DNA of 64,000 nucleotides from Candidatus Omnitrophota bacterium (lineage in GTDB: Bacteria > Omnitrophota > Gorgyraeia > Gygaellales > Profunditerraquicolaceae): positions 21,630 through 85,629 of the forward strand of contig JAQURC010000006.1 of assembly GCA_028715785.1 (NCBI GenBank), written 5' to 3'. This document shows, piece after piece, positions 8,915-46,073 of this stretch (within the stretch, counting starts at the first letter, position 1; every line of letters begins with the position of its first letter). Below the pieces are notes generated by a model. It ran no database searches. It worked only from the letters and a program-made list of their open reading frames with translations, and was not told where the DNA came from. A program made the translations under genes and the position numbers.

Positions 8915-8917
8915 TCA

Positions 8918-9811: not shown

Positions 9812-9817
9812 AGTTAT

Positions 9818-9860: not shown

Positions 9861-9886
9861 TTCAAGAAAGGCCAGTGAGATAAAGA

Positions 9887-28107: not shown

Positions 28108-29394
28108 ATGAAAAGGTTGTTAATCGCAGTATTGTTGGGAACTTTCTGCTTGATGAGCGCAGGTGTCCGGGTTTCATACGCAGGGGAAATCGATTTATTG
28201 TTACAAAAGTTAGTAGATAAAGGTGTTTTAACCGGCGCAGAAGCACAGCAGGTAAAACTTGAGACTCAGGAGCAGGTAAAGAAGGAAATTGCCCAGGGCA
28301 AGTATTCTTCTCTGCCGGCTTGGGTGCAGAATATCAAGTTAAAAGGTGATTTACGGCTGAGATATCAGAATCAACATGAAAAAAATAATGCTGATATACA
28401 AAAAGACGCCAACATCGGCCGTGTGCGTATGCGCTTGGGCTTAGAGGCCAAGGTAAACGATAAGATCCTCGCCGGAGTCGGTATAGCTACCGGAAGCGGA
28501 GATCCGCGCTCTACCAATATATCTTTCGGCGGTTACAATAGTAAAAAGACGGTTGTGCTGGATTATGCTTACGGTAAGTATGCGCCGCTTCCCTGGCTAA
28601 AACTTGTCGGCGGAAAAATGCTTCCTGGTGATGTATTTTGGGAGCCTACCGATTTAATATGGGATACGGATATAACTCCTGAAGGCGCGGTTATCGGGCT
28701 TAGCAAGGATTTGAATCCCAGAACCAATTTGTTTATGAACGGCAGTTTCTTAGTTGTCGAGACAGATTCTACATCAACTTCCGGGGCTTCGGCGTTCCTT
28801 ATTCAGCCGGGAGCAAGTTACAAATTTAATGATACCTACTCATTAAAAGGGGCGGTTTCTTTTTCCTCGTTCGATGTCAAAGACCAGGTTCCTTCAAGCC
28901 ACGATAAAGGCTCCAATACTAAATATAATAGCACTTCTGCTACTACGGGAAACTATGCCTTTAATTACGCGATGCTTAATCCTGCGTTAGAATTTAAGAT
29001 TATGCAGCCTTTTAAAGTTTTTGGGTTAAGCCCTGAATCTTTAAAGTTTTTTGGTGAATATGTGAATAACCTGGATGTTTCCAAGAAAAATACCGGTTTC
29101 TCGGCAGGGTTCCAGCTTGGCAATGAAAAAATCGAAAAGTGGGGTGATTGGCAGTTACGATACCTCTATGCTATGTTAGGCAAGGATGCCGTGCTTGATA
29201 TATTGCCTGACTCTGACCGTTATAGCGGTAAAACAGGCATAAGAAGCCATGAGGTTATTTTAAATTTCGGCTTAGCTAAAAATACCTCCCTTGGTTTTGA
29301 TATCTACCGTTCATGGGGAATAAACGGGATAAATAGCGGCGGAAGGGCGCAGCCTGAAACCTTGGCTCAGGTTGATCTTAATATGAAGTTCTGA
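28108..29394 (+). CDS. Outer-membrane beta-barrel porin, putatively phosphate-selective (OprO/P-like context)
   Basis: Signal peptide. N-terminal helical segment, then alternating beta-strand pattern and a C-terminal aromatic (LNMKF). Immediately upstream of pstS and downstream of a Pho box. Confidence 0.5.
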   Translation: MKRLLIAVLLGTFCLMSAGVRVSYAGEIDLLLQKLVDKGVLTGAEAQQVKLETQEQVKKEIAQGKYSSLPAWVQNIKLKGDLRLRYQNQHEKNNADIQKDANIGRVRMRLGLEAKVNDKILAGVGIATGSGDPRSTNISFGGYNSKKTVVLDYAYGKYAPLPWLKLVGGKMLPGDVFWEPTDLIWDTDITPEGAVIGLSKDLNPRTNLFMNGSFLVVETDSTSTSGASAFLIQPGASYKFNDTYSLKGAVSFSSFDVKDQVPSSHDKGSNTKYNSTSATTGNYAFNYAMLNPALEFKIMQPFKVFGLSPESLKFFGEYVNNLDVSKKNTGFSAGFQLGNEKIEKWGDWQLRYLYAMLGKDAVLDILPDSDRYSGKTGIRSHEVILNFGLAKNTSLGFDIYRSWGINGINSGGRAQPETLAQVDLNMKF

Positions 29395-29427: not shown

Positions 29428-30246
29428 ATGAAATTAACAAGGTTAGCGGTAATGGGAACGTTGATTTTGGGCCTTGCGTTACCCTGCTACGCAGAGAAGA
29501 TTGTGGTTGAAGGCTCTACTACTGTGCTTCCTATCGCCCAAAAAACAGCTGAAGTTTATATGGACAAAAATCCCGGTGCCAATATTTCTGTGCGCGGCGG
29601 AGGTTCAGGAGTGGGTATTGCATCGTTGTTAGATAAAAATTGCGATATCGCTGATTCTTCCCGTCCGATTAAGGACACAGAGCTTGATAAAGCAGTAACT
29701 AACGGCGTTGATGCTACAGCTAATATAGTTGCCATGGATGGTTTAGCAGTAATTGTCAATCCGGAAAATAGCATTAGTAAATTAAGTAAAAAACAGGTAA
29801 AAGATATTTTTACCGGCACAATTTCTAACTGGTCTCAGTTAGGAGGCAAAGATGAGAAGATTGTAGTTGTATCCCGCGATACTTCAAGCGGGACATTTGA
29901 AGCTTTCCTCACGTTAGTATTGGAAGGCGGTAAAACCCGCTCTGATGCTTTAATGCAGGCATCTAATCAGGCAGTGGCAACTACTGTTGCTGGCACCCCG
30001 GGAGCTATAGGTTATGTGGGGTTAGGTTTTCTTTCATCTTCGGTAAAGGCGATTGAAATAAACGGAGTTATGCCTTCAAGGGATACGGTTGTCTCCGGTA
30101 AATATCCAGTTACCCGCCCGCTTTTTATGTACACCAATGGTAAACCTAAAGGGTTAGTTAAGGAATACATTGATTTTATTTTAAGCGATGAAGGACAGAA
30201 GTTAGTTGAAGAAGAGGGTTTTGTAGGGTTAAAGGAGAAAAAATAA
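29428..30246 (+). CDS. pstS: Phosphate ABC transporter substrate-binding protein PstS (copy 1)
   Basis: GSTTVLPIAQK...RGGGSGVGIASLLDKNCDIADSSRPIK...VSRDTSSGT. Confidence 0.9.
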   Translation: MKLTRLAVMGTLILGLALPCYAEKIVVEGSTTVLPIAQKTAEVYMDKNPGANISVRGGGSGVGIASLLDKNCDIADSSRPIKDTELDKAVTNGVDATANIVAMDGLAVIVNPENSISKLSKKQVKDIFTGTISNWSQLGGKDEKIVVVSRDTSSGTFEAFLTLVLEGGKTRSDALMQASNQAVATTVAGTPGAIGYVGLGFLSSSVKAIEINGVMPSRDTVVSGKYPVTRPLFMYTNGKPKGLVKEYIDFILSDEGQKLVEEEGFVGLKEKK

Positions 30247-30269: not shown

Positions 30270-30300
30270 ATGGCACGGTGGATTTATTCTGCCGTGCCAT
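30270..30300 (+). other. Intercistronic stem-loop between pstS and pstC
   Basis: ATGGCACGG (13-nt loop) CCGTGCCAT, a 9-bp perfect stem with no U-run. This fits a 3' stabiliser or partial terminator that gives excess pstS mRNA. Confidence 0.5.
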
Positions 30301-30310
30301 TACTCCTATT

Positions 30311-31201
30311 ATGAAGATACTGCGTTTTAAAGAAAGACTATACAAATGGATTTTTACTATCCTTGCCTTTGCTTCGCTTTTTTTCCTGATGGGCATTGTG
30401 TTAGTGCTGGTTAAAGAAAGCCTGCCCATATTCCAGAAAGTAAACTTCTTTAAATTTATCTTTGGCCGCAGCTGGTATCCTACTTATAATCCCGCGGAAT
30501 TCGGAATCTTACCTTTAATTTTAGCTTCTATTTGGGTAACTTTGGGCGCGGTTGTAGTTTGTGTTCCTTTAGGGGTTGGCAGCGCGCTTTATCTAAATGA
30601 ATTAGCCGGGAGGCGCCAAAAAGCCGTACTCAAGCCAATCGTTGAATTGTTAGCCAGCATCCCTTCGGTAGTTTTCGGATTTTTTGGCGTGGTTATACTT
30701 ACGCCTTTATTACAGAAGGTATTTCATTTACCTACAGGGTTAACTGCCTTAAATGCCAGTATTATTTTGGGGGTTATGGCTACTCCTACGGTATGCAGTA
30801 TCGCAGAAGACGCATTAAATTATGTCCCGAATGCGTTTCGCGAGGCTTCATTTGCGGTAGGGGCCACACGCTGGCAAACTTTGACTCAAGTAATAATCCC
30901 GGCAGCGGGTTCAGGAATAGCTACGGCCATAATTTTAGGGATGAGCCGGGCGATCGGCGAAACGATGACTGTGTTAATGGTTGCCGGAGGTTCAGCAGTC
31001 ATACCTCATACATTCTTAGAGCCGGTGCGGCCGATGACCGCGGCGATTGCCGCGGAGATGGGGGAGGCTCCTATGGGCGGCAGCCATTATCACGCGCTTT
31101 TTGCCATCGCGCTCATATTATTTGTGATTACATTTATATTTAATGTTATCGCCGAGATAATCAGCCGGAGTTTTAGGGTAAAGCTGGGGTTAAGCGGATG
31201 A
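30311..31201 (+). CDS. pstC: Phosphate ABC transporter permease PstC (copy 1)
   Basis: PstC-like multi-TM protein with EDALNYVPNAFREASFAVGATRWQT. The track GTG 30278 lies in the hairpin, so ATG 30311 is preferred. Confidence 0.9.
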   Translation: MKILRFKERLYKWIFTILAFASLFFLMGIVLVLVKESLPIFQKVNFFKFIFGRSWYPTYNPAEFGILPLILASIWVTLGAVVVCVPLGVGSALYLNELAGRRQKAVLKPIVELLASIPSVVFGFFGVVILTPLLQKVFHLPTGLTALNASIILGVMATPTVCSIAEDALNYVPNAFREASFAVGATRWQTLTQVIIPAAGSGIATAIILGMSRAIGETMTVLMVAGGSAVIPHTFLEPVRPMTAAIAAEMGEAPMGGSHYHALFAIALILFVITFIFNVIAEIISRSFRVKLGLSG

Positions 31202-32046
31202 AGAAAGAGTTTTCGCAAAATTTGGGATTTTTTGGTTTATTCCTCTGCATGCTTACTACCATTTTGGCCCTGGGCTCAATTATTTATTTTATCGCGGCGC
31301 GTGGATTTAGCGTGTTGAGTTGGAGTTTTCTTACCCAGGTGCCGTATTCGGCGATGACTAAAGGCGGGATTGCGCCGGTTATCGTGGGCACATTTTATAT
31401 TACTTTGGGGGCGATTATGTTTGCTCTTCCGCTGGGGATTGCTTGCGCGGTATATCTTTGCGAGTATTCACCTAAGAGCATCGTGGTAAATATTATTAGA
31501 ATCAGCATCAATAATCTGGCCGGCGTGCCATCGGTTGTCTTTGGCCTATTTGGCTTAGCGGTGTTCGTTAAATTCTTCGGTTTTGGAGTTTCCATTCTCT
31601 CCGGAAGCCTGACTTTAGGGATTTTGGCGCTGCCAATGATAATCTCCTCAGCGCAAGAGGCGCTTTTGGCCGTTCCTCAATCAATCAGGGAAGCTTCATT
31701 ATCTCTGGGGGCGACGAAATGGGGAACTATCAAAAATATCGTCTTACCTACAGCTTTGCCCGGGATCCTTACCGGTGTGATTTTAAGTATTGGCAGGGTG
31801 GCCGGAGAAACTGCACCGATTCTATTTACCGCCGCCGCCTTTTATACGCGCGGCTATCCTAAATCCGTATTTTCCGAAGTCATGGCCCTGCCGTACCATA
31901 TTTACGCGCTGATGACTGAAGGAGCGCATCCGGATAAGCAAAGAGCGATTGCCTATGGTTGCAGCTTGGTGCTTTTATTTTTGGTTTTATTTATTTCAGG
32001 ATTTGCTATATTCTTGCGTCAAAGGCAGAGGAGTTTGTATGGATAA
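31198..32046 (+). CDS. pstA: Phosphate ABC transporter permease PstA (copy 1)
   Basis: [38 protein letters not shown] overlap with pstC. Confidence 0.9.
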
Positions 32047-32800
32047 CAAGATAAAAATGCAGGCAAAAAACGTGGATTTTTTTTACGGGAAAAACCAGGC
32101 GCTAAAAAATGTCAACCTCAATGTTTATGCCAATAAAGTTACGGCGATGATCGGGCCTTCAGGCTGCGGCAAATCAACATTCATCCGTCTGTTTAACCGG
32201 ATGAATGAATTAGTCGCGCATACAACCCTTAAAGGCAAGATTTTGCTGGATGATTTGGATATTAACAGCCCTCTGGTTGATGCCGTGGATATTCGAAAAA
32301 GGGTGGGGATGGTTTTTCAGAAACCCAATCCTTTTCCTAAAACTATATTTGAAAATATAAGCTACGGTTTAAAAGTGAACGGAATAAAAGATAAAGCGTT
32401 TATTGAGCAGAAGGTTGAAGATTCCTTAAAGAAGGCGGTTATCTGGGCTGAAGTAAAGGACAGGCTTAATGACAGTGCTTTGAAATTATCCGGCGGGCAG
32501 CAACAACGTTTATGTATTGCCCGGTGTTTGGCCGTAGAGACAGAGGTAATACTATTTGATGAGCCATGTGCCAGCCTGGATCCGATATCAACCGCTAAGA
32601 TAGAGGAATTGATTTTGGAGCTTAAAAAAGATTATTCCATTGTGATTGTCACGCATAATATGCAGCAGGCAGCGCGGGTCTCTGATTATACAGGGTTTTT
32701 CCTTTTGGGGGAGTTGATTGAGTTTGGAAAAACGCAGGATATATTTACCGCTCCCAAAGATAAAAAAACCGAGGCTTATATAACCGGTAGGTTTGGTTAA
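32039..32800 (+). CDS. pstB: Phosphate import ATPase PstB (copy 1, canonical motifs)
   Basis: [43 protein letters not shown]-type Walker [12 protein letters not shown]. Start at Met 32039 (8-nt overlap with pstA); the upstream part of the track ORF is out-of-frame overlap. Confidence 0.95.
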
Positions 32801-32829: not shown

Positions 32830-33507
32830 ATGGAAAGACATTTTGACGTAGAGTTGGCCGATTTAAAAAGTAGTATACTTCAGATGGGTGATTTAGTGGA
32901 GGAAGCGATTATTGATTCGGTGGAGGCGCTTAAACAGTTACGTAAAGATAAAGCTGCCAGGGTGATTGCCGAAGATAAGATTGTTGATGAGTGCGAACTT
33001 AAAATTGATGAAGAGTGTCTGGATCTTTTGGCTTTAAGGCAGCCGATGGCAGTGGACCTGCGTTTTATTACCATGGCGATGAAGATCTCTACTGATTTGG
33101 AAAGAATGGCGGATCTGGCTGTGGATATCTCCCAGCGGGTGTTGGAATTAGCAGATAAGCCGCTGCTTAAGCCGCTGGTAGATATACCAAAATTAACCCT
33201 GCTTGCGCAAAAGATGACTCGTGATGCCATAAGTTCATTTGTTAATAAAGACGCGGAATTAGCCAGGATAGTAATATCGAGCGATCGAGAAGCCGATAAC
33301 CTGCGTGATCTAGTTCAACAGGAGCTGCTCAATGATTATATCTCCAAAAATAAAACAACTATTCCACGCGCTATTCCTTTACTTTTGATTGCCCGCCATC
33401 TTGAGCGTATCTGCGATCACGCCACTAATATCGCCGAAGATGTAATCTATATGGTTGAGGCAAAGGTAGTAAAACACCACCTGGAAAAATTAGATGAAAA
33501 CAGTTGA
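32830..33507 (+). CDS. phoU: Phosphate signalling regulator PhoU (copy 1)
   Basis: Two PhoU repeats, with LERMADLAVDI and LERICDHATNIAEDVIYM. Confidence 0.95.
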   Translation: MERHFDVELADLKSSILQMGDLVEEAIIDSVEALKQLRKDKAARVIAEDKIVDECELKIDEECLDLLALRQPMAVDLRFITMAMKISTDLERMADLAVDISQRVLELADKPLLKPLVDIPKLTLLAQKMTRDAISSFVNKDAELARIVISSDREADNLRDLVQQELLNDYISKNKTTIPRAIPLLLIARHLERICDHATNIAEDVIYMVEAKVVKHHLEKLDENS

Positions 33508-34933: not shown

Positions 34934-34987
34934 TTTACAAAGAATTTACATTGCCTTAATAATTAGTTAACAAATTAATTGTATATT
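34934..34987 (+). promoter_or_regulatory. Pho-box array plus -10 element (R3)
   Basis: TTTACA-aagaa-TTTACA-ttgcc-TTAATA-attag-TTAACA at 34934/34945/34956/34967. TATATT at 34982-34987, 9 nt after the last repeat. Confidence 0.65.
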
Positions 34988-35076: not shown

Positions 35077-35730
35077 ATGTTAAAAATAAGAGGCACTATT
35101 TTATCCATAATATTTATCCTTTTATTGTCGCGCTATGCCGTGGCCGAAGTAGTTACTCTCAAATCCGGCAAGGTTATTGACGGTGAAATTGTCGAAAGAA
35201 ATAAAGACTATGTTAAAGTTAAATATGATGGACAAGAGATTTATTATGAAAATAAATATATTAAAAATATAGAGGCACAAAATACGCCTGAGCCAGCCGT
35301 GAATGCGGAAAAAGAAAAAGCAGCGCAAGATCCAATGCCATCTTTTAAGAGCGCAATAGAGTTGGCTGCGGCAGGGAACTTCAGCCAGGCTAGGCAGGAA
35401 TTTCAAAAGCAGTTCAATGATATAAAAGGAGGGCTTAATATTCTTGATGATGTGGAGAAAGGCTTAATCAGTAAAGAGTATGCCATCTATTTATTTCAAG
35501 GGTCATTGCATATGATTAACGGGGAATATAATTTAGCCATAACATCTTTGGAAAAGGCCTGGGAAATTAATCCCAGGGATCCGGATCTAAATTATAACCT
35601 CGGTTCCGCTTATTTTTCCTTGGGGGAATATAAAGAATCAATCGTGTATTTGTCCGCTGTTTTAAAATTACAACCGCTTGATACCGAGGCCCAGGAGCTT
35701 CTAACCAGGGCTTATCATGGACAAAACTAA
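35077..35730 (+). CDS. Secreted protein with small N-terminal beta domain and TPR repeats
   Basis: Signal peptide ILSIIFILLLSRYAVA. TPR-like units (KAWEINPRDPDLNYNLGSAYFSLGEYKESI). Confidence 0.55.
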   Translation: MLKIRGTILSIIFILLLSRYAVAEVVTLKSGKVIDGEIVERNKDYVKVKYDGQEIYYENKYIKNIEAQNTPEPAVNAEKEKAAQDPMPSFKSAIELAAAGNFSQARQEFQKQFNDIKGGLNILDDVEKGLISKEYAIYLFQGSLHMINGEYNLAITSLEKAWEINPRDPDLNYNLGSAYFSLGEYKESIVYLSAVLKLQPLDTEAQELLTRAYHGQN

Positions 35731-35747: not shown

Positions 35748-38700
35748 ATGTTTAGAATGTTACGTAGAATCTTAGCCTGCCTGTTATGTTTTACGCTCCT
35801 CTTTGAACAGAGTGGTTTTGCCCAGTCTGTAGCGGAAGGCAATTTCTTAGGTTTTTTTGCCCCTCCTCACCTAAGCGGCGCCTTTAATCCCGCGCGTCTT
35901 CGCTATGTTGCATACGCCGAAAACATCAATAAATTTAAATTTTTATTTGACAAGGGTGATTTAAGAGATACTGACGATTTTACTTTAAAGGATTCAATCA
36001 GCGGACCTTTAAGTTATTTTTTGGTAGGGATAACTTTACCGAGCGAAAGTTTCTGGGTAAATCTGCGGCCGGATTCCCCGGCTAATGTTATCGATGATTT
36101 ACTGGCTGAAACTGATGTGGGCAAGATTTTCTTAGAAGCCGACTTGCAGTTAAAGAAGGAGTTTGCTCGTTACACTATGTCTGCCCAGCAGGGAAAAGAA
36201 TATCGGCTGCAAATCAGGAAAAAAGCCGAAGAGCTTTTTGGCTGCCTGGCGTTAGCTCCTTCAACTTTTACCCGCGTGTGGATTGACCCGGGTGAGATAA
36301 TCATCAGAGAAACTCAAAACAGCGCTTATATATATAAAGCAAATTTGAATGTGCTTACGGAGGAAGATTATTTTGGAAATTCCTTGGCCTCTGAAGATAA
36401 ACGGGTACAGGCTTTTAACGAATACGCGTCAGAACTTATAAAAAATTTAATTTTACCCAAGCTTATCAAGGAGGTGAATACCGGGAAAGAATTTGCCGCT
36501 TTAAGACAGGTTTATTATTCTTTTATTTTAGCTCAGTGGTTTAAAAATAGATTCTTGCAGCGTAACGGTCCAGCGCCCCGGTTTATCGATAGTAAAATTT
36601 TATCTGGTCTTAATTCTAAACATCCTTGGTCCAAGGAGGATTATTTTGCGCAATACCAGGAATCAGTACAAAGGGGGGACTACCGTTTTGATGAAAGAGA
36701 ACCTTTAGTTTTTGGAGAAATGGTAACTAGTTATTCTTGCGGCGGGGTAACTCTGGCATTAAAAATTCCGCCTTTTGCTTCTGCGGGGATGATCACTAGT
36801 GATGGGAGTATGACTTTAATAGGCGGAAGAGAAATAGAAGGTATTTTATCCCCTGACCGGGTTCTTGACCTAGGGTTAATCAGTGCAACTGCAAAATTTG
36901 ATCTAAAGGATCCGCTGGGTAATGTTATTGTTGAATCCGCAGCAAGTTCAGTTCGTAATGCTGCGTCAGCCGCTCCTGTTTCTGCTGCCAGCAGCGCGCA
37001 GGCGATGAATGACGGTGGAAGCCAGGTATTGAAAAAAGCAAAAGAAAAACTAAGTGTGTTAGAATTAAATAATCCGGCTTATTTAATTGCCGCGGAGCTA
37101 TTGCTTGGCGCTTTATTTATTTTTGGATTTTTTGTTGACGCCGGGAGTATGTTTTATAACTATGGGGTATTTGGACACTCCGTAATAGAAAGGTTTGTCG
37201 GTTATCCCTTGCCGAGTTTGAATGAGTATTTCCAGATTATCTCGCTTTCTTTTATTGCCTTTAACGCCTTGTTTGGATTATCAAAATCACCCGCGGTTAG
37301 GGCAAAAACCGGGCTTGCCCCCATTTTTTCAATACTTTCGGGATTTACGCTTTTTGGGATAGTGCCGCTGGCTATCAGCCTTACGGGTTTAGATAAATAT
37401 TTCAACTTGCAACTGGCGGTTTCTCCTTACGCGATGGAGGCCTTCGCGCTTTTGGGCGCGGCAGTTATAGGTCTATTGCCGGGGATGAATACTAAAAAGG
37501 AGAGCCCGGTTGATTTCCCTGAGAGTAGTCCGGATATAGAAAATAATACGGGTTGGGTGGAGCCTTCATGGGACGCTGTAGTAGAGGCGGCTTTGAATGA
37601 AGTAAACAAAAGGGCCGGTATTTCCGGCCTTACCGATGGAGCCTGTCTTGAGTTCCTGGAACAAACGCGCAAGCTCAGAAACCTCCTGCCTTTTGAATCG
37701 CATATCGTTACCGACAAAAGAGTCGCCTATTATCAGATTTACGACGAAGCTTTACAGTCTCTGTGCAAGAAACTCCAGGAAATTATGGATAGGCTGCGTG
37801 TAAGTACAGATGAGTTGGAACGAAAACGCCTGAATATCTACGCTTCTGAAATATTGGTTACTGCCGAATATTTTAATGAATGCCTGCGCGCTCTTAATGA
37901 GGTAGAGAATATCCCTCTTTCATCCGGTGACCGGCTTGACCGCAGCACCCCTTTTCGTAAAACAATCTCTTTTATTGTCGGGCATGCCTTTGGGTTTAAT
38001 AAGACATTTAACTATTCCAAGAAGGAGCTTATGAAGCAGCTAAAGGAGAAAATCATTCCGTTAGGCAATAGCTTGGATAACCTTTATTCGACAAAAGCCG
38101 ATATCGATAAGCAGGTTATTAAAAAGTGGGGGGAATGGATCCAAAACTGTTATGAAGGCAAAAGAAAAAGGCTGGGCGCCAGAAAAGGCTGGGTTTTTTG
38201 GAAAGAGATGTTCGGCCCGCTTGTCAGCCTGGTCTTGGTGGCTTCTGCACTTCCGATTGGCGGGAACATTGGTTTTCTAGAGTTCTTGTCCGCCCCTGAC
38301 TTTAGCGCGGGCGCTTTATGGAACGCAAAACCATTGGTAGGGCTTTCGCTTATTTTTTTGGGTTGGTATGTGTTACTGTTTCCCGGCAGAGGTAAAGCCG
38401 ACCAGACTTATAAAGAACACAATAAGACAATTGAGAAGTTAAAGCGGCAATTTAAAGACACTTTTTTCCTTATTGAGGGGGATTCAAGAAACAAGGCATT
38501 ACAATTTGCTTATGAGCAGTCTCTTGAAGCGGCTTGGAAAGAACTTTCTAGCGCCAGCGCAAGCGCGCAGGCAGTCATTGTTGTCACGGAACAGCCCAAA
38601 ATAATTCAGGATTTTCTTGAAAATTTGCGCGGTACGATATTACGAAAAGATGTCGAATTATTGGCTATTTCCGCCGAAAACAAAGGCAGTGCCGCGGCGT

Positions 38701-40094
38701 TTATCGAAGGTATGTTAGAAGCGCGGAAGTTTAAGAGAAGTATACTGTTGTTGGGAAGAGAGCAGGATATTGCGCGGTCATTGCAGCTTTTGCCGCTTCC
38801 GGCGTTTGAGCCGCTGGGGCGGCCATTGACCCCTTTGGAATTATCGCTGATTAATGGTTATCAGCTAACCCAGGCTTTAAAACAAAAAGGCCGTTGGGGT
38901 ACAGCGGTAGAAGTTACGCATAAATGCTTGATTCGTGATCTGAATTCATCATTGGAAGAAGTGCCTGACATGGAATTAACAACGGCATTGGTCGATATAG
39001 AGCAAATGGCCAGGCAGGATCTGGCATTAATTGTTGAAAATAACGGTAATGGCGGAAACGGTAAGCCAAAACCGTATGGGTGGATCCGCAAGATATTTAA
39101 ACATTTGAGTCTAGAAGACGTGAGAAATAAGACCGGGCCAAGGCATTTGCCCGCGTTTTCTGTTGACTGGCGCAATAAAGAAAAGCGGCAAATGCGCGTA
39201 TTCAGCGGAGAGATATTGGTAAGTATTCAGGATAAAGAACGCAATGAGTCTTTTATGTCGTTTCTTTCGCAAATGAAGGATTATATGGCTGAGCATTCCA
39301 AAGATAGTTTTCAACCCAATCTTACTACCCATTTTCTCGTTCCTCTGGTTATGCTTACTAATAACGAAGGAGCAGGGATTCACCGTTTTCGGGAGGGCCT
39401 GAATTTAAAAAATAAAGAGGATATTTTTTTAAAGGGGCTCTTCAATTTGTTTTGGCCTGAAGATGATACAGGGTATCACAGTAAATTAGCAGCTCTTCAA
39501 ATAGAAGCTCTTATACCCCATCAAAGTTCATTCTATACGCGTTTAGACGGCACTACGGATGCGGATGCGGTATTGAAACAACAATTAGGCGGCCTTTATA
39601 CTGAACCGCCTAACAAAGAAATTTTAACTTTACTGTACAGGGCTGCCCAAAACGAGGATACAGCCTCAATGCAACATGAATTAGACGGCGGGCATTCATC
39701 ATCCAATGTAATATCCTCCAGCCCGCAGAGAGTTGTAATTCCATCATTGGGAGCCGGCGTCGGCGGCATAGGTTTTTCTTCAATGAAAGTTGTCCTGAAC
39801 TACGATGATCTGTTGAAAATAGATGGGGAGTGGGGTCAAATTGAAAAGATGTTGGAGTCCGGAAACCTTCCCTCGATACCTTCGGTCACAAATTATGTGG
39901 AAACGGCGGTAAAAAATACTGATTCCGGTATGCAGTTATATAAAGCGATGGCCTGCGTTGCCGGTATCCTCAAACTGGAAGAAGAATTGGTAATCCCGGC
40001 GCAGATGGAAATTAAAAGGCTGTTGCTGGTGCTGGAAGAACATCTAAACCGGCAGGGCGGCCAAATGAATTCTAAGAATCTTGCTTTAAGGTAA
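35748..40094 (+). CDS. Giant (1448 aa) multi-pass membrane protein, unknown function
   Basis: Uninterrupted ORF. Signal peptide ending GFAQS, ~430-aa N-terminal exported domain, two TM clusters (~aa 445-590 and ~aa 820-880) around a helical soluble region, and a ~560-aa C-terminal domain. No motif I can assign securely. Confidence 0.5.
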   Translation: MFRMLRRILACLLCFTLLFEQSGFAQSVAEGNFLGFFAPPHLSGAFNPARLRYVAYAENINKFKFLFDKGDLRDTDDFTLKDSISGPLSYFLVGITLPSESFWVNLRPDSPANVIDDLLAETDVGKIFLEADLQLKKEFARYTMSAQQGKEYRLQIRKKAEELFGCLALAPSTFTRVWIDPGEIIIRETQNSAYIYKANLNVLTEEDYFGNSLASEDKRVQAFNEYASELIKNLILPKLIKEVNTGKEFAALRQVYYSFILAQWFKNRFLQRNGPAPRFIDSKILSGLNSKHPWSKEDYFAQYQESVQRGDYRFDEREPLVFGEMVTSYSCGGVTLALKIPPFASAGMITSDGSMTLIGGREIEGILSPDRVLDLGLISATAKFDLKDPLGNVIVESAASSVRNAASAAPVSAASSAQAMNDGGSQVLKKAKEKLSVLELNNPAYLIAAELLLGALFIFGFFVDAGSMFYNYGVFGHSVIERFVGYPLPSLNEYFQIISLSFIAFNALFGLSKSPAVRAKTGLAPIFSILSGFTLFGIVPLAISLTGLDKYFNLQLAVSPYAMEAFALLGAAVIGLLPGMNTKKESPVDFPESSPDIENNTGWVEPSWDAVVEAALNEVNKRAGISGLTDGACLEFLEQTRKLRNLLPFESHIVTDKRVAYYQIYDEALQSLCKKLQEIMDRLRVSTDELERKRLNIYASEILVTAEYFNECLRALNEVENIPLSSGDRLDRSTPFRKTISFIVGHAFGFNKTFNYSKKELMKQLKEKIIPLGNSLDNLYSTKADIDKQVIKKWGEWIQNCYEGKRKRLGARKGWVFWKEMFGPLVSLVLVASALPIGGNIGFLEFLSAPDFSAGALWNAKPLVGLSLIFLGWYVLLFPGRGKADQTYKEHNKTIEKLKRQFKDTFFLIEGDSRNKALQFAYEQSLEAAWKELSSASASAQAVIVVTEQPKIIQDFLENLRGTILRKDVELLAISAENKGSAAAFIEGMLEARKFKRSILLLGREQDIARSLQLLPLPAFEPLGRPLTPLELSLINGYQLTQALKQKGRWGTAVEVTHKCLIRDLNSSLEEVPDMELTTALVDIEQMARQDLALIVENNGNGGNGKPKPYGWIRKIFKHLSLEDVRNKTGPRHLPAFSVDWRNKEKRQMRVFSGEILVSIQDKERNESFMSFLSQMKDYMAEHSKDSFQPNLTTHFLVPLVMLTNNEGAGIHRFREGLNLKNKEDIFLKGLFNLFWPEDDTGYHSKLAALQIEALIPHQSSFYTRLDGTTDADAVLKQQLGGLYTEPPNKEILTLLYRAAQNEDTASMQHELDGGHSSSNVISSSPQRVVIPSLGAGVGGIGFSSMKVVLNYDDLLKIDGEWGQIEKMLESGNLPSIPSVTNYVETAVKNTDSGMQLYKAMACVAGILKLEEELVIPAQMEIKRLLLVLEEHLNRQGGQMNSKNLALR

Positions 40095-40385: not shown

Positions 40386-40483
40386 CTAAATCCCCGATTA
40401 ATTATTTACTTACTCATTAACATATCATATAATAATTCAGATTGTTTTACCCGCAATAATCTTTCCAAAGAAAGGTTAAAGAA

Positions 40484-41140
40484 ATGAATAAAACAGGCTT
40501 GGTGGCTATTGGTTTGATACTATTGTTATTAGCTAATGCCTATGCTTATGACGACGGTGATTTTCAGGTATGGAACACGGATGTCGAGGAAATCCAGCTT
40601 AAGAAAGATTTAAAGCTGGCCTTTGAGCAGGAGTTTCGCTGGGGGGATAACGCCAGTGAATTTTACTACCAGCATTATGATGTCGGATTAACCTATAACC
40701 TAAATAAATATTGGAGTGCCGGCGGTGGATACCGGCATGTGCTTAATAAAAGCAAAGATAAATTTTTGGTAGAAAACGAGCCTTATGTTACGGCCACTTT
40801 TGCCAGCCAATTTGCCGGATTTAAATATGATGACCGCAGCCGGCTGGAATATAACCATTTTGATTATAAAGATGACACCTGGCGCTACCGCAATAAGCTT
40901 ACGGTAAAGGCCCCCTGGAAATTTACTAAATTAGAGATCCAGCCGTTTGCTGCCGATGAGATATTCATTCTTTTTGATGATGGCCAGAGGTTAAGTGAAA
41001 ACAGGACGACTGCGGGTTTGGCGATGAATATCGCCAAAAACCTAAAAGGTGAAGTTTATTATATGTTCAGAACCGTAAAAAGCGGACTGAAGTGGACGGA
41101 TACGAATGTATTGGGAACAAAACTAAAGTTAGTGTTTTAA
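40484..41140 (+). CDS. Outer-membrane beta-barrel protein (DUF2490-like)
   Basis: Signal peptide. DDGDFQVWN...EQEFRWGDN...YYQHYDVGLTY alternating pattern. Terminal LKLVF. Confidence 0.5.
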   Translation: MNKTGLVAIGLILLLLANAYAYDDGDFQVWNTDVEEIQLKKDLKLAFEQEFRWGDNASEFYYQHYDVGLTYNLNKYWSAGGGYRHVLNKSKDKFLVENEPYVTATFASQFAGFKYDDRSRLEYNHFDYKDDTWRYRNKLTVKAPWKFTKLEIQPFAADEIFILFDDGQRLSENRTTAGLAMNIAKNLKGEVYYMFRTVKSGLKWTDTNVLGTKLKLVF

Positions 41141-41142
41141 AT

Positions 41143-41186
41143 TTTACTTAGATTTAACATGGATTTAGAGTAAATACAAGTATAAT
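41143..41186 (+). promoter_or_regulatory. Pho-box array plus -10 element (R4)
   Basis: TTTACT-tagat-TTAACA-tggat-TTAGAG at 41143/41154/41165. TATAAT at 41181-41186, 10 nt after the third repeat. Confidence 0.55.
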
Positions 41187-41220: not shown

Positions 41221-42075
41221 ATGTTTAAGAAAGGTTTGTTTATTTTAGCTTTGCTTATCTTTACGGTTCCGGCGTTTGCCGGAAAAGATAAAAATTCCAT
41301 CCAGATTAAAGGCTCGGATACTATGGTCAATCTCGGACAGGCCTGGGCAGAGAAATATATGGAAAAAAATCCCGGGGATTTTGTGGCGGTAACCGGCGGC
41401 GGCTCCGGGACAGGATTGTCCAGTTTAATCAGCGGAACCTGCGATATCGCGATGAGCTCAAGAAATATCAAGGATAAAGAGATTTCTTTGGCCGAACAAA
41501 AAGGGATTGATCCTTTTGAGATAAAAGTTGCTTTGGATGGTTTGGCGGTAGTCGTCAATCCGGCTAATCCGGTGAGCAAGCTCACAGTGGAACAGCTGGC
41601 CGGAATCTTTACCGGCAGTATCACTAACTGGAAAGAAGTGGGGGGAAAAGACGGGAAGATCGTCATTCTTTCGCGCGAAGTAAATTCCGGGACCCACGTT
41701 TATTTTAAAGAGCACGTATTAAGGAAAGGCAATGCCAACGGCAGAGAGGAATTTGCTCCCGGAGCCTTGTTATTATCTTCTTCGCAGGCGATTGCCGATG
41801 AAGTTGCCGGTAATTCCGCAACGATAGGTTATTATGGGATGGGTTATATCTCAAGCAAGCAAAAGCCCGTTGCTATTGCTAAAGACGCTAAATCCGAATA
41901 CGTTAATCCCAGTATCGAGAATGTTCTAAGCGGTAAATACCCCATATCCAGGCCGCTTTTTCTATATACTAATGGAGAGCCGCAAGGACTGATTAGGAAA
42001 TTCGTTGATTATGCCCTTTCTAAAGAAGGTCAGGATATTGTAGTCAAGACGGACTTTGTTCCCATTAAAAAATAA
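41221..42075 (+). CDS. pstS: Phosphate ABC transporter substrate-binding protein PstS (copy 2)
   Basis: GSDTMVNLGQA...TGGGSGTGLSSLISGTCDIAMSSRNIK...LSREVNSGT. Confidence 0.9.
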   Translation: MFKKGLFILALLIFTVPAFAGKDKNSIQIKGSDTMVNLGQAWAEKYMEKNPGDFVAVTGGGSGTGLSSLISGTCDIAMSSRNIKDKEISLAEQKGIDPFEIKVALDGLAVVVNPANPVSKLTVEQLAGIFTGSITNWKEVGGKDGKIVILSREVNSGTHVYFKEHVLRKGNANGREEFAPGALLLSSSQAIADEVAGNSATIGYYGMGYISSKQKPVAIAKDAKSEYVNPSIENVLSGKYPISRPLFLYTNGEPQGLIRKFVDYALSKEGQDIVVKTDFVPIKK

Positions 42076-42094
42076 TGCGAAAGTTATTAACAGT

Positions 42095-42122
42095 TGTAGG
42101 GGAGGTTTAAACCTCCCCTACA
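42095..42122. repeat. Family A hairpin, copy 3 (between pstS2 and pstC2)
   Basis: TGTAGGGGAGGTTTAAACCTCCCCTACA is a perfect 28-nt palindrome, preceded by TAACAGTT. Confidence 0.85.
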
Positions 42123-42141
42123 TTAAGGGTATCAGGCGGCT

Positions 42142-43005
42142 ATGCGGAAAATCAAGGAGTTTGTTATTGAGAAGCTAATCCTGGTCTGCGGCTTAGCTTC
42201 CATATTTTTTGTCATCCTAATTTTTTTATTTCTAACCAAAGAAGGCCTGTCCGTATTTAAATCGGTTAGTCCTTTTAATTTTCTTTTTGGCAAAAGCTGG
42301 TATCCCATCTCTGAACCGCCGCAATTAGGGATCTTACCGCTAATATTGGGTTCATTATTAGTGACCTTGGGAGCGGCAATTATTTCTATCCCTATAGGCG
42401 TAGCCTGCGCAGTTTATATCGCCGAAATCGCGCCATTAAAAATTAAAGAAATTCTAAAAGCCGGAATTGAATTATTGGCGGCTATACCCAGCGTGGTCTT
42501 AGGTTTTATTGGTATGGTAACTTTAGTCCCCTGGGTAAAGACTACTTTTCATCTGCCTACGGGTTTAACTGCCTTGTCCGGTTCGATAATTTTAGCTTTT
42601 ATGGCTATGCCGACGATAGTTTCGATTGCCGAGGACGCGCTTTATTCTGTTCCCAAAAGTTATAAAGAAGGCGCCTTTGCTTTAGGGGCTACGCATTGGC
42701 AGACAATTTACCGGGTTTTGCTTCCGGCTGCTTCTTCAGGGATAGTCGCGGCGGTAATGCTTGGTATCGGCCGGGTAATCGGCGAGACCATGGCGGTAAT
42801 GATGATTACCGGCAACGCCGCGGTCATTCCGCAGAGCATTCTTGTGCCGGTGCGCACTTTGACCGCCACCATTGCCGCGGAAATGGGCGAGGCGGTTGTG
42901 GGCAGCGAACATTATTTTGCGCTTTTTGCTATCGGCATAGTTTTATTCATCATAAGTTTTATCATCAATGTTACCGCGGACCTATTCTTGCACAAGAGGC
43001 ATTAA
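42142..43005 (+). CDS. pstC: Phosphate ABC transporter permease PstC (copy 2)
   Basis: EDALYSVPKSYKEGAFALGATHWQT. Multi-TM. Confidence 0.9.
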   Translation: MRKIKEFVIEKLILVCGLASIFFVILIFLFLTKEGLSVFKSVSPFNFLFGKSWYPISEPPQLGILPLILGSLLVTLGAAIISIPIGVACAVYIAEIAPLKIKEILKAGIELLAAIPSVVLGFIGMVTLVPWVKTTFHLPTGLTALSGSIILAFMAMPTIVSIAEDALYSVPKSYKEGAFALGATHWQTIYRVLLPAASSGIVAAVMLGIGRVIGETMAVMMITGNAAVIPQSILVPVRTLTATIAAEMGEAVVGSEHYFALFAIGIVLFIISFIINVTADLFLHKRH

Positions 43006-43853
43006 TGCGTAATACGCAAAGATCACAAAAGATCGCCTTCTTTTTTCTTTTCCTGGCTACGCTTTTAATTGTTGTGCCGGTTGGCTTGATTGTTGTGATT
43101 ATTATCCAGAAAGGCCTGCCGGCGATTAACTGGCAATTTTTAGCGGATATTCCGCGCCAGGGGATGCGCGCCGGAGGGATTTTCCCGGCGATCATCGGGA
43201 CAATTTATCTTGTTTTGGGCGCGATAATCTTTGCCCTGCCCATAGGCCTGCTGGCGGCAATTTATTTAAGTGAATACGCAAAGGACAATATTCTTAACCG
43301 CATAATCAAGCTGGCAATCGTGAATCTCTCCGGTGTGCCTTCGGTTGTCTATGGTTTATTTGGTTTGGCGCTTTTTGTGGTTTTCTTAAAATTTGGCGCA
43401 TCGATTTTATCCGGTTCGCTCACTTTAGGGATAATGATCCTGCCGATAATCATTACTACCTCCCGGGAGGCTTTGGAAAGCGTGCCGCATTCGTTTCGCG
43501 AGGTAAGCTTGTCTTTGGGGGCAAGTAAATGGCAAACCATAAGGCATATAGTTTTACCCAATGCCGTACCCGGAATTCTAACCGGGACCATTCTGGGATT
43601 AGGCCGCGCAGCGGGAGAAACCGCCCCGATTCTTTTTACTGTGGCGGCTTTTTATCTGCCGCAGCTGCCTAAATCTATTTTTGATCAGGCGATGGCGCTG
43701 CCGTATCACTTGTATGTAATTTCAACGCAGGTGCCTAATGTGGATGAAAAAATACGTTATGGCACGGCTTTAGTCCTGTTATCTTTGGTTTTGTTTATGA
43801 ATTTAGTGGCCATAATCATCCGTTATAATTTCAGAAAGAAGAAGAAATGGTAA
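43005..43853 (+). CDS. pstA: Phosphate ABC transporter permease PstA (copy 2)
   Basis: Met at 43005 (TAATG overlap with pstC). REALESVPHSFREVSLSLGASKWQT, ALPYHLYVI. The longer track ORF (42696) is an out-of-frame overlap. Confidence 0.9.
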   Translation: MRNTQRSQKIAFFFLFLATLLIVVPVGLIVVIIIQKGLPAINWQFLADIPRQGMRAGGIFPAIIGTIYLVLGAIIFALPIGLLAAIYLSEYAKDNILNRIIKLAIVNLSGVPSVVYGLFGLALFVVFLKFGASILSGSLTLGIMILPIIITTSREALESVPHSFREVSLSLGASKWQTIRHIVLPNAVPGILTGTILGLGRAAGETAPILFTVAAFYLPQLPKSIFDQAMALPYHLYVISTQVPNVDEKIRYGTALVLLSLVLFMNLVAIIIRYNFRKKKKW

Positions 43854-44593
43854 AACTTAACGCCAGGAACCTGAATATCTGGTTTGGCCAGATCCACGCT
43901 TTAAAAAGCGTGAACATCGAGGTAGAGGCCAATGAGATTTTAAGCGTAATCGGCCCGTCCAACAGCGGAAAGACCAGTTTCCTGCGCATGCTTAATCGTC
44001 TGAATGACCTGTATCCGGGTTTTAAAATGAGCGGCAGCTTAGAGTTTGATCAAGAGGATATCAGAAAAATAGATATTGAGGTTTTGCGCAAAAAAGTAGG
44101 CATGGTTTTTGCTTTACCCCTGCCCCTGCCTTTATCGATTTTTGAAAATGTGGCCTATGGGGTCAGGATGCACGGAGAAAATAACCGCGGCCGGATCTCC
44201 GGGATTGTCGAGCGTTCCTTAAAGCAAGCCTATCTCTGGGATGAGGTCAAGGACAGGTTGGATGTCTCGGCTTTTAAATTATCCGGCGGACAGCAGCAGC
44301 GTCTTTGCATTGCCCGGACCCTGGCGGTTGAGCCGGAGGTCATCTTATTCGATGAGCCTTGTTCCGGGCTTGACCCGATTTCAACCGCCAAAGTTGAAGA
44401 GGCAATGTTAAAGCTGAAAAAAGACTATACAATAGTTTTAGTAACTAACAATGTAAAGCAGGCGGCCAGGGTGGGGGACCGCACGGCTTTTTTTCTGTCA
44501 GGAGAGCTGATAGAATTGGACAAAACAGAAAAGATGTTTACGGCGCCCAGCGACCAGCGTACCGATGGCTATATTAGAGGAAAGTTTGGATAA
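43847..44593 (+). CDS. pstB: PstB-like ATPase with degenerate Q-loop and H-loop (copy 2a)
   Basis: Walker [19 protein letters not shown] replaces VFQKPNPFP. Signature LSGGQQQRL is intact. Walker [17 protein letters not shown] replaces VTHN. Confidence 0.85.
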
Positions 44594-45348
44594 TGGCGGA
44601 TATTTTAGTAAATAATTTAAATTTATGGTACGCTGATTTCCAGGCGCTGATAGGCGTAAAAGCGCATTTTACCCAAAAGCAGATTACCGCTATGATTGGG
44701 CCATCAGGGTGCGGTAAGTCGACTTTACTGCGGGTGTTTAACCGGATGAATGACCTTATCGAAGGGGTGCGCGTAGAAGGGGAAGTAATCATTGACGCCG
44801 AAAATATAATTTCCGATAAAACGGATTTAGTGGGCTTGCGTAAAAAAGTAGGCATGGTCTTTCAGCGGCCCAACCCCTTCCCGTTATCTATTTATGAGAA
44901 TATTGTTTTTGGCCAGAAGGTGCATGCCGAAGGCTTAACTAAGCTAAAACTCAATGAGATAGTTGAGGATAGCTTAAAATCCGTTCTTTTGTGGGATGAA
45001 CTTAAAGATAAGCTGAATAAATCCGCGCTGAGTTTGTCGCTTGAACAGAAGCAGCGGCTTTGCATTGCCAGGCTGATCGCGGTTAAGCCTGAGATTTTGC
45101 TGATGGATGAGCCCTGTTCGACCCTTGACCCGCAGGCAACCAGCCGTATCGAAGAATTAATGCGTGAACTTAAGAATAACTATACTATAATAATTGTTAC
45201 GCACAATATGCAGCAGGCAGCGCGCGTTTCGGACCAAACAGGTTTTATGCTTTTAGGCGAATTGGTTGAATTTGGTAAAACAGAGGATATTTTTACCCGG
45301 CCAAAAGATAAGCGGACAGAAGATTATATTACCGGCCGATACGGTTAG
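44593..45348 (+). CDS. pstB: PstB-like ATPase with degenerate ABC signature (copy 2b)
   Basis: Walker [11 protein letters not shown]-loop VFQRPNPFP, Walker [13 protein letters not shown] and H-loop VTHN are all canonical. The signature is LSLEQKQRL instead of LSGGQ. Confidence 0.85.
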
Positions 45349-45394
45349 ACACCCCGCGCTTATAAGGTATTGCGCGGGTATGGCCTTGTGGCCA
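45349..45394 (+). repeat. Family E element + satellite hairpin, copy 1
   Basis: ACACCCCGCGCTTATAAGGTATTGCGCGGGTA, then TGGCC-ttgt-GGCCA. Starts right after the pstB2b stop. The satellite abuts the phoU2 RBS. Confidence 0.8.
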
Positions 45395-45404
45395 AGGAGG
45401 ATAA

Positions 45405-46073
45405 ATGCTAAGGCATTTAGATGAAGAATTAAAGGAACTGCACAAAGATATTTTGAAGATGGCGGTATTTGCCCAGGAGTCGATATTTAAATCTATCGAG
45501 TCGCTAAAGAACCGCGATAAAAACCTGGCTCAGGATGTAATCGATACTGATAATAAGATCGATGAACTGGAGTTGGCAATCGATGAAAAATGCATTGATC
45601 TTATTGCCCGTTATCAGCCGATGGCAGGAGATTTAAGGTATATTACCACCGGGATGAAGATAAATACGGAGCTGGAGCGGATTGCCGACATAGCATTAGA
45701 TATCTCGCAAAAATCATTAGCATTGATGGATAAGCCTTTACTTAAACCATTAGTGGATATTCCCAAGCTTTCCCAGGTGGCGCAGAATATGGTTAAGGAT
45801 GCCATTGACGCATTTGTCAAAAAGGATGCCCAGTTGGCCCGGCAGGTGGTTTTAGCGGATTGCGAAGCCGACAGGTTGCGTAACCTGGTTCAGGATGAGC
45901 TGGTTAATGAATATCTGGCGCGCGATCCTAAAACCGCGGAGCGGGCGGTGGCATTATTGCTTATTGCCCGGTATTTGGAGCGTATCTGCGACCACACTAC
46001 CAATATTGCCGAAGACGTAATTTATATGGTCGAGGCAAAAGTAGTCAAGCACCATCCCGAAGAATTGAAATAA
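45405..46073 (+). CDS. phoU: Phosphate signalling regulator PhoU (copy 2)
   Basis: LERIADIALDI and LERICDHTTNIAEDVIYMVEAKVVKHH. Close paralogue of 32830..33507. Confidence 0.95.
   Translation: MLRHLDEELKELHKDILKMAVFAQESIFKSIESLKNRDKNLAQDVIDTDNKIDELELAIDEKCIDLIARYQPMAGDLRYITTGMKINTELERIADIALDISQKSLALMDKPLLKPLVDIPKLSQVAQNMVKDAIDAFVKKDAQLARQVVLADCEADRLRNLVQDELVNEYLARDPKTAERAVALLLIARYLERICDHTTNIAEDVIYMVEAKVVKHHPEELK

Follow-up and report, generated by a model that had tools for sequence, protein, structure and literature searches.

A tandem PstB pair with complementary motif changes suggests a phosphate importer with a single catalytic ATP site in uncultured bacteria

The 64,000-nucleotide stretch of DNA analysed here (hereafter the window; positions 21,630 to 85,629 of contig JAQURC010000006.1 in the Candidatus Omnitrophota bacterium assembly GCA_028715785.1) contains two operons for phosphate-specific transport (Pst), both on the + strand, and the second of these encodes two adjacent ATPase subunits, PstB2a and PstB2b, with complementary departures from the ATP-binding cassette (ABC) consensus. 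On the basis of their sequences, we consider it likely that PstB2a and PstB2b constitute an obligate asymmetric heterodimer with a single catalytic ATP site that would serve the PstS2-PstC2-PstA2 importer. The complementarity of the motifs and the coupling of the two genes suggest that the proteins assemble physically as a 1:1 heterodimer on PstC2/PstA2.

Results

Complementary motif changes in PstB2a and PstB2b

The two open reading frames (ORFs) lie exactly where an initial annotation of this DNA had placed them (Table 1), and TIGR00972 (PstB) was the best-matching family for both of the encoded proteins. PstB2b scored 373.3 bits against the family cutoff of 343.2 and is a PstB by this curated threshold. 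PstB2a scored 340.3 bits, 2.9 below the cutoff, with the next family at 243 bits, and it matched Escherichia coli PstB with E = 6e-79; judged by its sequence, it is best regarded as a divergent paralog of PstB and not as an equivalog. Motif columns were assigned from a HMMER alignment of PstB2a to E. coli PstB (PDB codes 9k3x and 9k3s), which was gap-free across all motifs, and the same columns were obtained from a three-way alignment with PstB1 and from an alignment of 328 sequences.

The motifs of PstB2a and PstB2b read, respectively, GPSNSGKTS and GPSGCGKST for Walker A, VFALPLPLP and VFQRPNPFP for the Q-loop, LSGGQ and LSLEQ for the signature, ILFDEP and LLMDEP for Walker B, and VTNN and VTHN for the H-loop. 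In all three alignments, A89 of PstB2a occupied the column of the E. coli Q-loop residue Q98, and N201 that of the H-loop residue H210. The losses of the Q-loop Gln and the H-loop His proposed in the initial annotation were thus borne out, as was the position of the substituted residues in the Q-loop, H-loop and signature columns, which that annotation had suggested checking against orthologues. It had also described Walker A, Walker B and LSGGQ of PstB2a as intact. Walker B and LSGGQ are so, but Walker A is only approximately preserved: its Lys is kept, whereas the ABC-typical fourth Gly is replaced by Asn and the Cys by Ser, and the sequence does not conform to GxxGxGKST. PstB2b is, as had been claimed, canonical in Walker A, the Q-loop, Walker B and the H-loop and departs from the consensus in its signature, with E151 in place of the second signature Gly.

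Structures such as the MJ0796 and MalK dimers establish that each ATP of an ABC ATPase is held between two partners: one nucleotide-binding domain (NBD) supplies Walker A, Walker B, the Q-loop and the H-loop, and the other supplies the signature. The subunits are arranged head to tail, as are the two PstB copies in E. coli PstSCAB (PMC12976172). It follows from this geometry, as had been noted initially, that both sets of changes fall within one composite site and that the other site matches the consensus. Site 2 would combine the canonical Walker A, Walker B, Q-loop and H-loop of PstB2b with the LSGGQ of PstB2a, and hydrolysis is expected to take place here. Site 1 would combine the variant Walker A of PstB2a, its Q-loop without Gln and its Asn in place of the H-loop His with the PstB2b signature, in which the second Gly is replaced by Glu. 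Judged by motif, a PstB2a homodimer would contain two sites lacking both His and Gln, and a PstB2b homodimer two sites facing an acidic signature; a single site matching the consensus in all motifs arises only when PstB2a is combined with PstB2b.

Conservation of the pair across genomes

The 328-sequence alignment comprised 197 proteins of the PstB2a type (2a-type), 56 of the PstB2b type (2b-type) and 75 canonical PstBs. The Q-loop Gln, the H-loop His and the Gly-Gly of the signature were each present in 100% of the canonical proteins, and the Gln and His were also present in 100% of the 2b-type proteins, whereas both were found in 0% of the 2a-type proteins. The position of the Gln was occupied in the 2a-type by Ala (92%) or Ser (6%), and that of the His by Asn (100%). 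In the 2b-type proteins, the second signature Gly was replaced by Glu (98%) or Asp (2%), and the first by Leu in 92%. Given that an acidic residue at the second position is near-invariant in this group, the alignment argues that it is selected for and not merely tolerated.

Other parts of the 2a-type nucleotide-binding machinery were retained. The Walker A Lys was conserved in 100% of these proteins, with a relaxed fourth position (Gly 50%, Asn 35%, Arg 8%) and with Cys changed to Ser in 91% and Ser to Thr in 98%. The Asp-Glu-Pro of Walker B was likewise present in 100% of the 197 aligned proteins, as well as in 110 of 111 further clusters (the remaining one having DAP); LSGGQ was conserved in at least 99%, and the A-loop aromatic residue in approximately 85%. 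The key residues of Walker A, the Q-loop, Walker B and the H-loop were 100% canonical in the 2b-type proteins. The elements of site 2, that is, these four motifs of the 2b-type and the LSGGQ of the 2a-type, were thus as conserved as those of canonical PstB.

We also searched for group-specific columns, defined as those in which at least 85% of a group carries a residue that differs from a canonical residue itself conserved in at least 85% (E. coli numbering). Those specific to the 2a-type were C47S and S50T in Walker A, Q98A and F103L in the Q-loop, and I207L, H210N and Q213K in the H-loop; all are located in or beside these three motifs, there were no others, and the replacements were near-invariant, with Leu at F103 in 100% and Lys at Q213 in 98%. 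The columns specific to the 2b-type were G156L and G157E in the signature together with the conservative changes K99R, A137V, V143L and F256Y. Because the changes are confined to one composite site across the alignment, the partition is a statistical property of the whole clade and not of this genome alone.

The same pattern was apparent among approximately 350 2a-type protein clusters, obtained as sets of 120, 120 and 111. All of the 120 closest clusters (79–100% identity) had the Ala and the Asn, and a protein of an Omnitrophica MAG at NCBI was 100% identical to the pstB2a product. The 231 more distant clusters (46–60% identity to the window protein), which came from a 50%-identity representative library and two further searches, contained no Q-loop Gln (Ala, Ser or Asp instead) and no H-loop His (Asn, with Ser in one); the Walker A Lys was present in all of them, and DEP and LSGGQ in all but one or two. 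The 2a-type proteins were labelled as Omnitrophota, Planctomycetota, Phycisphaerae, Verrucomicrobiae, Hydrogenedentes, Desantisbacteria and, for one metagenome-assembled genome (MAG), Bacillota, with such MAG labels sometimes being unreliable. Public records name these proteins generically ("phosphate ABC transporter ATP-binding protein", sometimes "PstB"), leaving their paralog status unmarked.

A scan of one genome per species revealed 50 loci with a 2a-type gene (58–92% identity). At each of the 48 loci at which the contig continued, the next gene encoded a PstB with canonical catalytic loops and the signature LSLEQ, LSLEK, LTLEQ or ISLEQ; 30 more distant loci of the scan had single, fully canonical pstB genes. 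Ten distant 2a-type genes read in their genomic context (L083 to L087, L096, L105, L155, L166 and L171) all lay in the order pstS-pstC-pstA-pstB2a-pstB2b, usually followed by phoU. The signatures of their partners were LSAEQ, LPLDQ, LSLEQ, LPLEQ, LSGEQ, LTEEQ, LPMDQ, LAPEQ and LSPEQ. The acidic residue at the second Gly is thus the invariant feature of the partner, and it is the sole signature change in L087 and L155.

A survey of tandem pstB pairs in other genomes had been suggested in the initial annotation, and the complementary changes were present in 59 of 59 complete pairs. In each of these pairs the two genes were neighbours with pstB2a first, and in most of them they overlapped. This set consists of the window pair, 48 species genomes (L001 to L050 without the truncated L005 and L018), L083 to L087, L096, L105, L155, L166 and L171, and the corresponding MAGs are labelled as Omnitrophota, Planctomycetota, Verrucomicrobiae and Hydrogenedentes. 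A metagenome scan of 80 loci, which relied on generic PstB peptide patterns and retrieved mostly ordinary single pstB genes, contributed four of these pairs with Asn and an acidic signature, and also yielded one intermediate pair and single-copy relatives lacking the Q-loop Gln.

The EAA coupling-loop motif of the permeases differed between single-type and pair-type operons, changing from REA to KEG in PstC and from REA to REV in PstA, a comparison confounded by phylogeny in that the pair-type loci were mostly from Omnitrophota and the single-type loci mostly from Acidobacteriota and cyanobacteria.

Evolution of the pair

In a neighbor-joining tree, the 2a-type and 2b-type proteins each formed one clade, with the latter nested among canonical PstBs, and the branching inside the two clades was parallel. 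Distance matrices for 2a-type and 2b-type proteins from 57 pairs were correlated with r = 0.93, a value reached in 0 of 2000 Mantel permutations, and the former evolved only approximately 12% faster than the latter. The ratio of nonsynonymous to synonymous substitution rates (omega) was approximately 0.04–0.05 for pstB2a, pstB2b and pstB1 alike; these values are rough, with synonymous sites near saturation and only 2, 10 and 1 pairs, respectively, having a synonymous divergence (dS) of <1.5. The 2a clade is deep, extending down to approximately 45% identity. The pair therefore appears to have had a single origin and to have been co-inherited under strong purifying selection on both members.

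A second neighbor-joining tree, in which the leaves labelled as canonical for L051 to L062 were wrong ORFs, is informative for ingroup relationships only; the first tree is free of this fault. The sister group of the Asn-type 2a proteins retains the H-loop His (VPHN or VPHS), has already lost the Q-loop Gln (Ala or Asp), and already shows the F103L and SGLD features. Three members of this group are encoded by single-copy pstB genes in pst operons (L158, L092 and L125; Table 1). A homodimer of such a protein would hold two Gln-less sites. A fourth member belongs to what looks like an intermediate tandem pair in L167 (2-1009 and 664-1779), in which the first PstB has Ala in the Q-loop and keeps the His (VPHS), and its partner has the signature LSLGQ, with the second Gly kept. 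Because the single-copy relatives are also without the Gln, its loss probably predates the pairing of 2a and 2b. Loss of the Gln by itself is probably compatible with a homodimeric PstB and so would not be inactivating. The changes that define the heterodimer are, on this comparison of sequences, Asn for the H-loop His in 2a and Glu or Asp for the second signature Gly in 2b.

Three further candidates (P0269, P0153 and P0236) were rejected as members of the pair system, P0269 and P0153 being single-copy genes and P0236 an orphan in an arsenic island. The first of these (L088, 5001-5786) is a single pstB that combines a Q-loop Asp with the signature LTADE in one protein, a homodimer of which would have two non-consensus sites; its operon, pstC-pstA-pstB-phoU, is located beside phoB and phoR. 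The orphan PstB-like ATPase P0236 (L090, 5001-5825) has the signature LLAGQ and a Q-loop Ser. No pst permease genes are present nearby, and its setting is an arsenic-type cluster with ArsC, a low-molecular-weight phosphatase, an MIP channel, and Rieske and molybdopterin oxidase subunits.

Discussion

Comparison with known ABC transporters

The degenerate-site design is, as the initial annotation stated, well known from heterodimeric ABC exporters: TM287/288, TmrAB, BmrCD, TAP1/2, CFTR and MRP1 carry the same kind of complementary lesions in one composite site, with the other site being consensus (PMC7756269). These exporters consist of fused transmembrane domain–NBD half-transporters, whereas Pst2 belongs to the type I importers that depend on a binding protein, and its NBDs are separate subunits. 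Loss of the catalytic Walker B Glu is the hallmark of the exporters (PMC7544095), whereas this Glu is kept in 100% of the 197 aligned 2a-type proteins, and Pst2 is instead marked by Ala for the Q-loop Gln, Asn for the H-loop His and Glu for the signature Gly. The degenerate site NBS1 of Pdr5, a fungal exporter of the PDR group, has the signature LNVEQ, with Glu at the fourth position as in LSLEQ, and this site likewise carries a replacement of the H-loop His (PMC7756269). Pdr5 differs in being a eukaryotic full-length exporter that has additionally lost the Walker A Lys and the Walker B Glu, both of which are kept in PstB2a, and it has no evolutionary relationship to Pst2 beyond the ABC superfamily. 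In CFTR, the G551D and G551E mutations introduce an acidic residue at exactly the position of E151 in PstB2b, the second Gly of LSGGQ (PMC4178940). Those mutations affect the consensus site and are pathogenic, whereas E151 is the conserved wild-type state in a non-consensus site.

Among importers, RbsA and NupO, which transport sugars and nucleosides, also have one of two ATP sites that is degenerate by sequence (PMC11466899). They belong to another importer family with other substrates, their NBDs are fused in one polypeptide, and they lack one Walker A Lys, with NupO also lacking the second Walker B Asp and Glu. E. coli PstSCAB, by contrast, is of the same family as Pst2 and shares its operon architecture and the coupling through EAA loops of PstA and PstC (PMC12976172), but it contains two identical PstB subunits and two consensus sites, whereas operon 2 encodes two different subunits.

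The initial annotation regarded a PstB homodimer as the norm for Pst systems. This view fits operon 1, with its single canonical pstB, but is not universal, given that the pstSCA operons of Firmicutes likewise end with two adjacent pstB paralogs (pstB1 and pstB2 in Enterococcus faecalis, pstBA and pstBB in Bacillus subtilis). Both Firmicute proteins are canonical, with no degenerate site, and the motifs of the E. faecalis pair are identical to those of E. coli PstB (PMC12096839); PstB2a and PstB2b do not correspond to this type. The second pstB gene of E. faecalis encodes the essential ATPase, and the authors of that study state that tandem pstB paralogs had not been studied before (PMC12096839). 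The B. subtilis transporter has been modelled as PstBA-PstBB-PstC-PstA-PstS (PMC11466899). The initial annotation had been aware of no degenerate-site PstB pair, and we found no description of one in the open-access literature.

Proposed mechanism and alternatives

Catalysis by ABC ATPases generally requires the H-loop His (for example, H662 of HlyB and H192 of MalK), and because of this requirement, together with the precedents of CFTR G551D/E and of Pdr5 with its LNVEQ signature and altered H-loop, site 1 is predicted to be non-hydrolytic. Nucleotide binding would nevertheless probably persist there, given the full conservation in the 2a-type of the Walker A Lys and of Asp-Glu in Walker B and the approximately 85% conservation of the A-loop aromatic residue. 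In CFTR, G551D and G551E, but not G551S or G551K, render ATP binding at the affected site unproductive through repulsion of the gamma-phosphate (PMC4178940). The transporter would then operate with one hydrolytic site, plausibly consuming one ATP per cycle, and the non-catalytic site might act as a permanent hinge or an allosteric site. An obligate heterodimer is the best explanation of the data in our view, because only the 2a/2b combination provides a consensus site, because the genes are coupled, and because the two proteins have diverged together. An effect on signalling is also plausible, given the proposal that PhoU and PhoR of E. coli sense which conformation the PstB dimer has adopted (PMC5775613).

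Several points weigh against this interpretation. The proposed heterodimer and the predicted loss of hydrolysis are both deduced from sequence. The catalytic Walker B Glu is kept in PstB2a, although degenerate sites of exporters are usually recognised by its absence (PMC7544095). The Gln-less single-copy PstBs in the pst operons of L158, L092 and L125 suggest that loss of the Gln should not by itself be counted as inactivating. By analogy with CFTR G551E, the acidic residue in place of the second signature Gly might keep site 1 from closing upon ATP binding, in which case no stable ATP "glue" would form there. Finally, excess PstB2 can substitute for PstB1 in E. faecalis (PMC12096839), and tandem PstBs are thus not always obligate heterodimers.

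If the substitutions were compensated for, or served to tune coupling to PstA and PstC, both sites of the 2a/2b dimer might still be catalytic, with the Glu of the signature or the Asn of the H-loop, for instance, assuming the roles of the missing residues. The intact Walker A Lys and Walker B Asp-Glu in all 197 aligned 2a-type proteins and the presence of Gln-less single-copy relatives in pst operons are consistent with such a scheme, as is the near-invariance of the substitutes (Asn 100%, Glu 98%, Leu at F103 100%, Lys at Q213 98%), which suggests selected chemistry rather than decay. We nonetheless judge it unlikely. The H-loop His, a general requirement for ABC ATPase activity, is present in 100% of the 75 canonical PstBs and in all 2b-type proteins, and a strict partition of changes into one site is predicted by a design with one active site but not by general retuning. 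Moreover, CFTR fails to undergo ATP-driven closure when its second signature Gly is replaced by an acidic residue (PMC4178940).

A mainly regulatory or signalling role for PstB2a, read by PhoU and PhoR, or the formation of alternative 2a and 2b homodimers, would remove PstB2a from the motor altogether. The proposed signal from the E. coli PstB dimer to PhoU/PhoR (PMC5775613) and the non-equivalent roles of the E. faecalis tandem PstBs (PMC12096839) lend themselves to this idea, and phoU follows every pair-type operon for which enough downstream sequence is available, with the exception of L085 to L087 (the order is phoU-phoB-phoR in L083). We consider it quite improbable, however, given that L085, L086 and L087 keep the pair without an adjacent phoU, that either homodimer would have two defective sites, with the 2b form a poor motor by the precedent of CFTR G551E, and that the perfect LSGGQ, the D-loop and the nucleotide-binding residues of PstB2a make sense only if they complete a site with PstB2b. 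A signalling role is, in any case, compatible with the heterodimer with one catalytic site. There is next to no likelihood that pstB2a is a decaying duplicate, or incipient pseudogene, whose complementarity to pstB2b is coincidental. Its score just below the TIGR00972 cutoff (340.3 versus 343.2) might be taken in that sense, but we rejected decay on the basis of an omega of approximately 0.04, equal to that of pstB2b and pstB1, of intact ORFs with invariant substitutions in approximately 350 clusters, and of the depth of the clade (approximately 45% identity) and its co-divergence with 2b.

With regard to the state of site 1 itself, we tentatively raise the possibility that a deep and widespread clade, represented by MAGs labelled as Omnitrophota, Planctomycetota, Verrucomicrobiota, Hydrogenedentes and Desantisbacteria, operates on a single hydrolytic site and has rebuilt the second one with an invariant signature carboxylate and an H-loop Asn. 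Such a site would close with no gamma-phosphate present, either ADP-bound or empty, the carboxylate taking the place of the gamma-phosphate in the empty state, and would be neither decayed nor an ATP "glue". If this were so, the ATP cost of high-affinity phosphate uptake would be halved, and the pair would represent a natural, selectable counterpart of CFTR G551D/E.

Genomic context and regulation

Operon 2 (41221-46073) shows the layout pstS-pstC-pstA-pstB(-phoU), which is the same in L083 to L087 and in L171. The overlaps between its genes amount to 4 nucleotides for pstC2/pstA2, 7 nucleotides for pstA2/pstB2a and a single base for pstB2a/pstB2b (stop/start TAATG). Short overlaps of this kind are the usual layout for translationally coupled subunits of one complex. 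The DUF2490 gene directly 5' of pstS2 is possibly the first gene of the operon 2 unit; a promoter-like site is present upstream of it at 40405-40433, although such sites occur at chance frequency in the region.

Table 1 Features of the two pst operons, codons and motifs of the PstB2a/PstB2b pair, and related genes. Positions are those of the window unless a locus is given.
Feature	Position	Strand	Remarks
phoB	25704-26396	+	Upstream of operon 1
phoR	26400-27509	+	Between phoB and operon 1
Direct repeat TTTACNNAGATTTWAC	27544-27559		Exact; upstream of small receiver-domain ORF
Direct repeat TTTACNNAGATTTWAC	28009-28024		Exact; upstream of operon 1 porin gene
Porin_5 gene	28108-29394	+	Operon 1
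pstS1	29428-30246	+	
pstC1	30278-31201	+	
pstA1	31198-32046	+	
pstB1	32039-32800	+	Sole pstB of operon 1; comparator; all five motifs canonical
phoU1	32830-33507	+	
Direct repeat TTTACNNAGATTTWAC	34934-34949		One mismatch; upstream of TPR gene at 35077
DUF2490 gene	40484-41140	+	Directly 5' of pstS2; Pfam PF10677, E = 2.9e-34
Pho-box-like direct repeat TTTACTTAGATTTAAC	41143-41158	+	63 bp upstream of pstS2
pstS2	41221-42075	+	Phosphate-binding protein; TIGR02136, 274 bits (cutoff 206.6)
pstC2	42142-43005	+	Permease; TIGR02138, 294.5 bits (cutoff 196.45)
pstA2	43002-43853	+	Permease; TIGR00974, 301.8 bits (cutoff 193.45)
pstB2a	43847-44593	+	248 amino acids; would supply the impaired catalytic motifs to site 1 and an intact LSGGQ to site 2
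PstB2a Walker A	43952-43978	+	Residues 36-44
PstB2a codon A89	44111-44113	+	Q-loop Gln position (E. coli Q98)
PstB2a codon N201	44447-44449	+	H-loop His position (E. coli H210)
pstB2b	44593-45348	+	251 amino acids; catalytic motifs complete, signature altered
PstB2b signature LSLEQ	45034-45048	+	Residues 148-152; L150/E151 correspond to E. coli G156/G157
phoU2	45405-46073	+	TIGR02135, 201.7 bits (cutoff 130.25)
Single-copy Gln-less pstB	L158 2121-2888		In pst operon; H-loop His and LSGGQ kept
Single-copy Gln-less pstB	L092 239-1060		In pst operon, then phoU; H-loop His and LSGGQ kept
Single-copy Gln-less pstB	L125 1769-2536		In pst operon, then phoU; H-loop His and LSGGQ kept

The direct repeat upstream of pstS2 resembles a Pho box in its 11-bp repeat spacing. 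Three exact matches and one with a single mismatch were found in the window, four in total against 0.13 expected for a pattern that was derived from these same sites. In 15 other loci from Omnitrophota, the exact motif also closely precedes pstS2, at the equivalent position; it occurred in addition approximately 2.8 kb upstream of pstB in five unrelated metagenome loci. We infer that the repeat works as a PhoB site, and both pst operons of the window probably belong to one regulon.

Several neighbouring genes were also recorded. A stand-alone response-regulator receiver ORF (MVKKIMIVEDDKDV...), read from the DNA by eye and shorter than the 150-amino-acid limit for listed ORFs, is situated between phoR and the porin gene at approximately 27606-28002 (+). 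Immediately 3' of phoU1 is a gene similar to those for low-molecular-weight phosphotyrosine phosphatase and ArsC (PF01451; 33534-34001, +). Between the two pst operons lies an ORF of 1448 amino acids (35748-40094, +) that matched no Pfam family and is predicted to contain membrane segments; it is preceded by the TPR gene (35077-35730), which has the one-mismatch Pho-box-like copy upstream of it. A two-system arrangement mirroring that of the window was observed in the Verrucomicrobiae-labelled locus L084, in which a pair-type pst operon (3462-8208) and a canonical single-pstB pst operon (8911-12426) converge, with nothing but a response-regulator gene between them.

Implications

Degenerate ATP sites are a central unsolved theme of ABC mechanism and have been studied almost entirely in exporters, and the usual view of type I importers is that of symmetric machines with two sites and a consumption of two ATP molecules per cycle. 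What the sequences described here would add is the degenerate-site principle in a type I importer, in a form in which the catalytic Glu is kept, the H-loop His is replaced by Asn, and an acidic signature residue is apparently obligatory. With separate soluble NBDs and a defined substrate, an asymmetric PstB pair present across several uncultured phyla would offer a simple test system, the use of which is aided by the structure of E. coli PstSCAB that is now available (PMC12976172). Such a system could reveal what role a non-catalytic site plays in an importer, whether one ATP drives one import cycle, and how an acidic residue at the position of CFTR G551 is tolerated or exploited. As for the organisms themselves, Omnitrophota have been described as ultra-small bacteria with host-dependent traits (PMC10066038), and we speculate that a second Pst system that is cheaper, or differently regulated, may be linked to this lifestyle.

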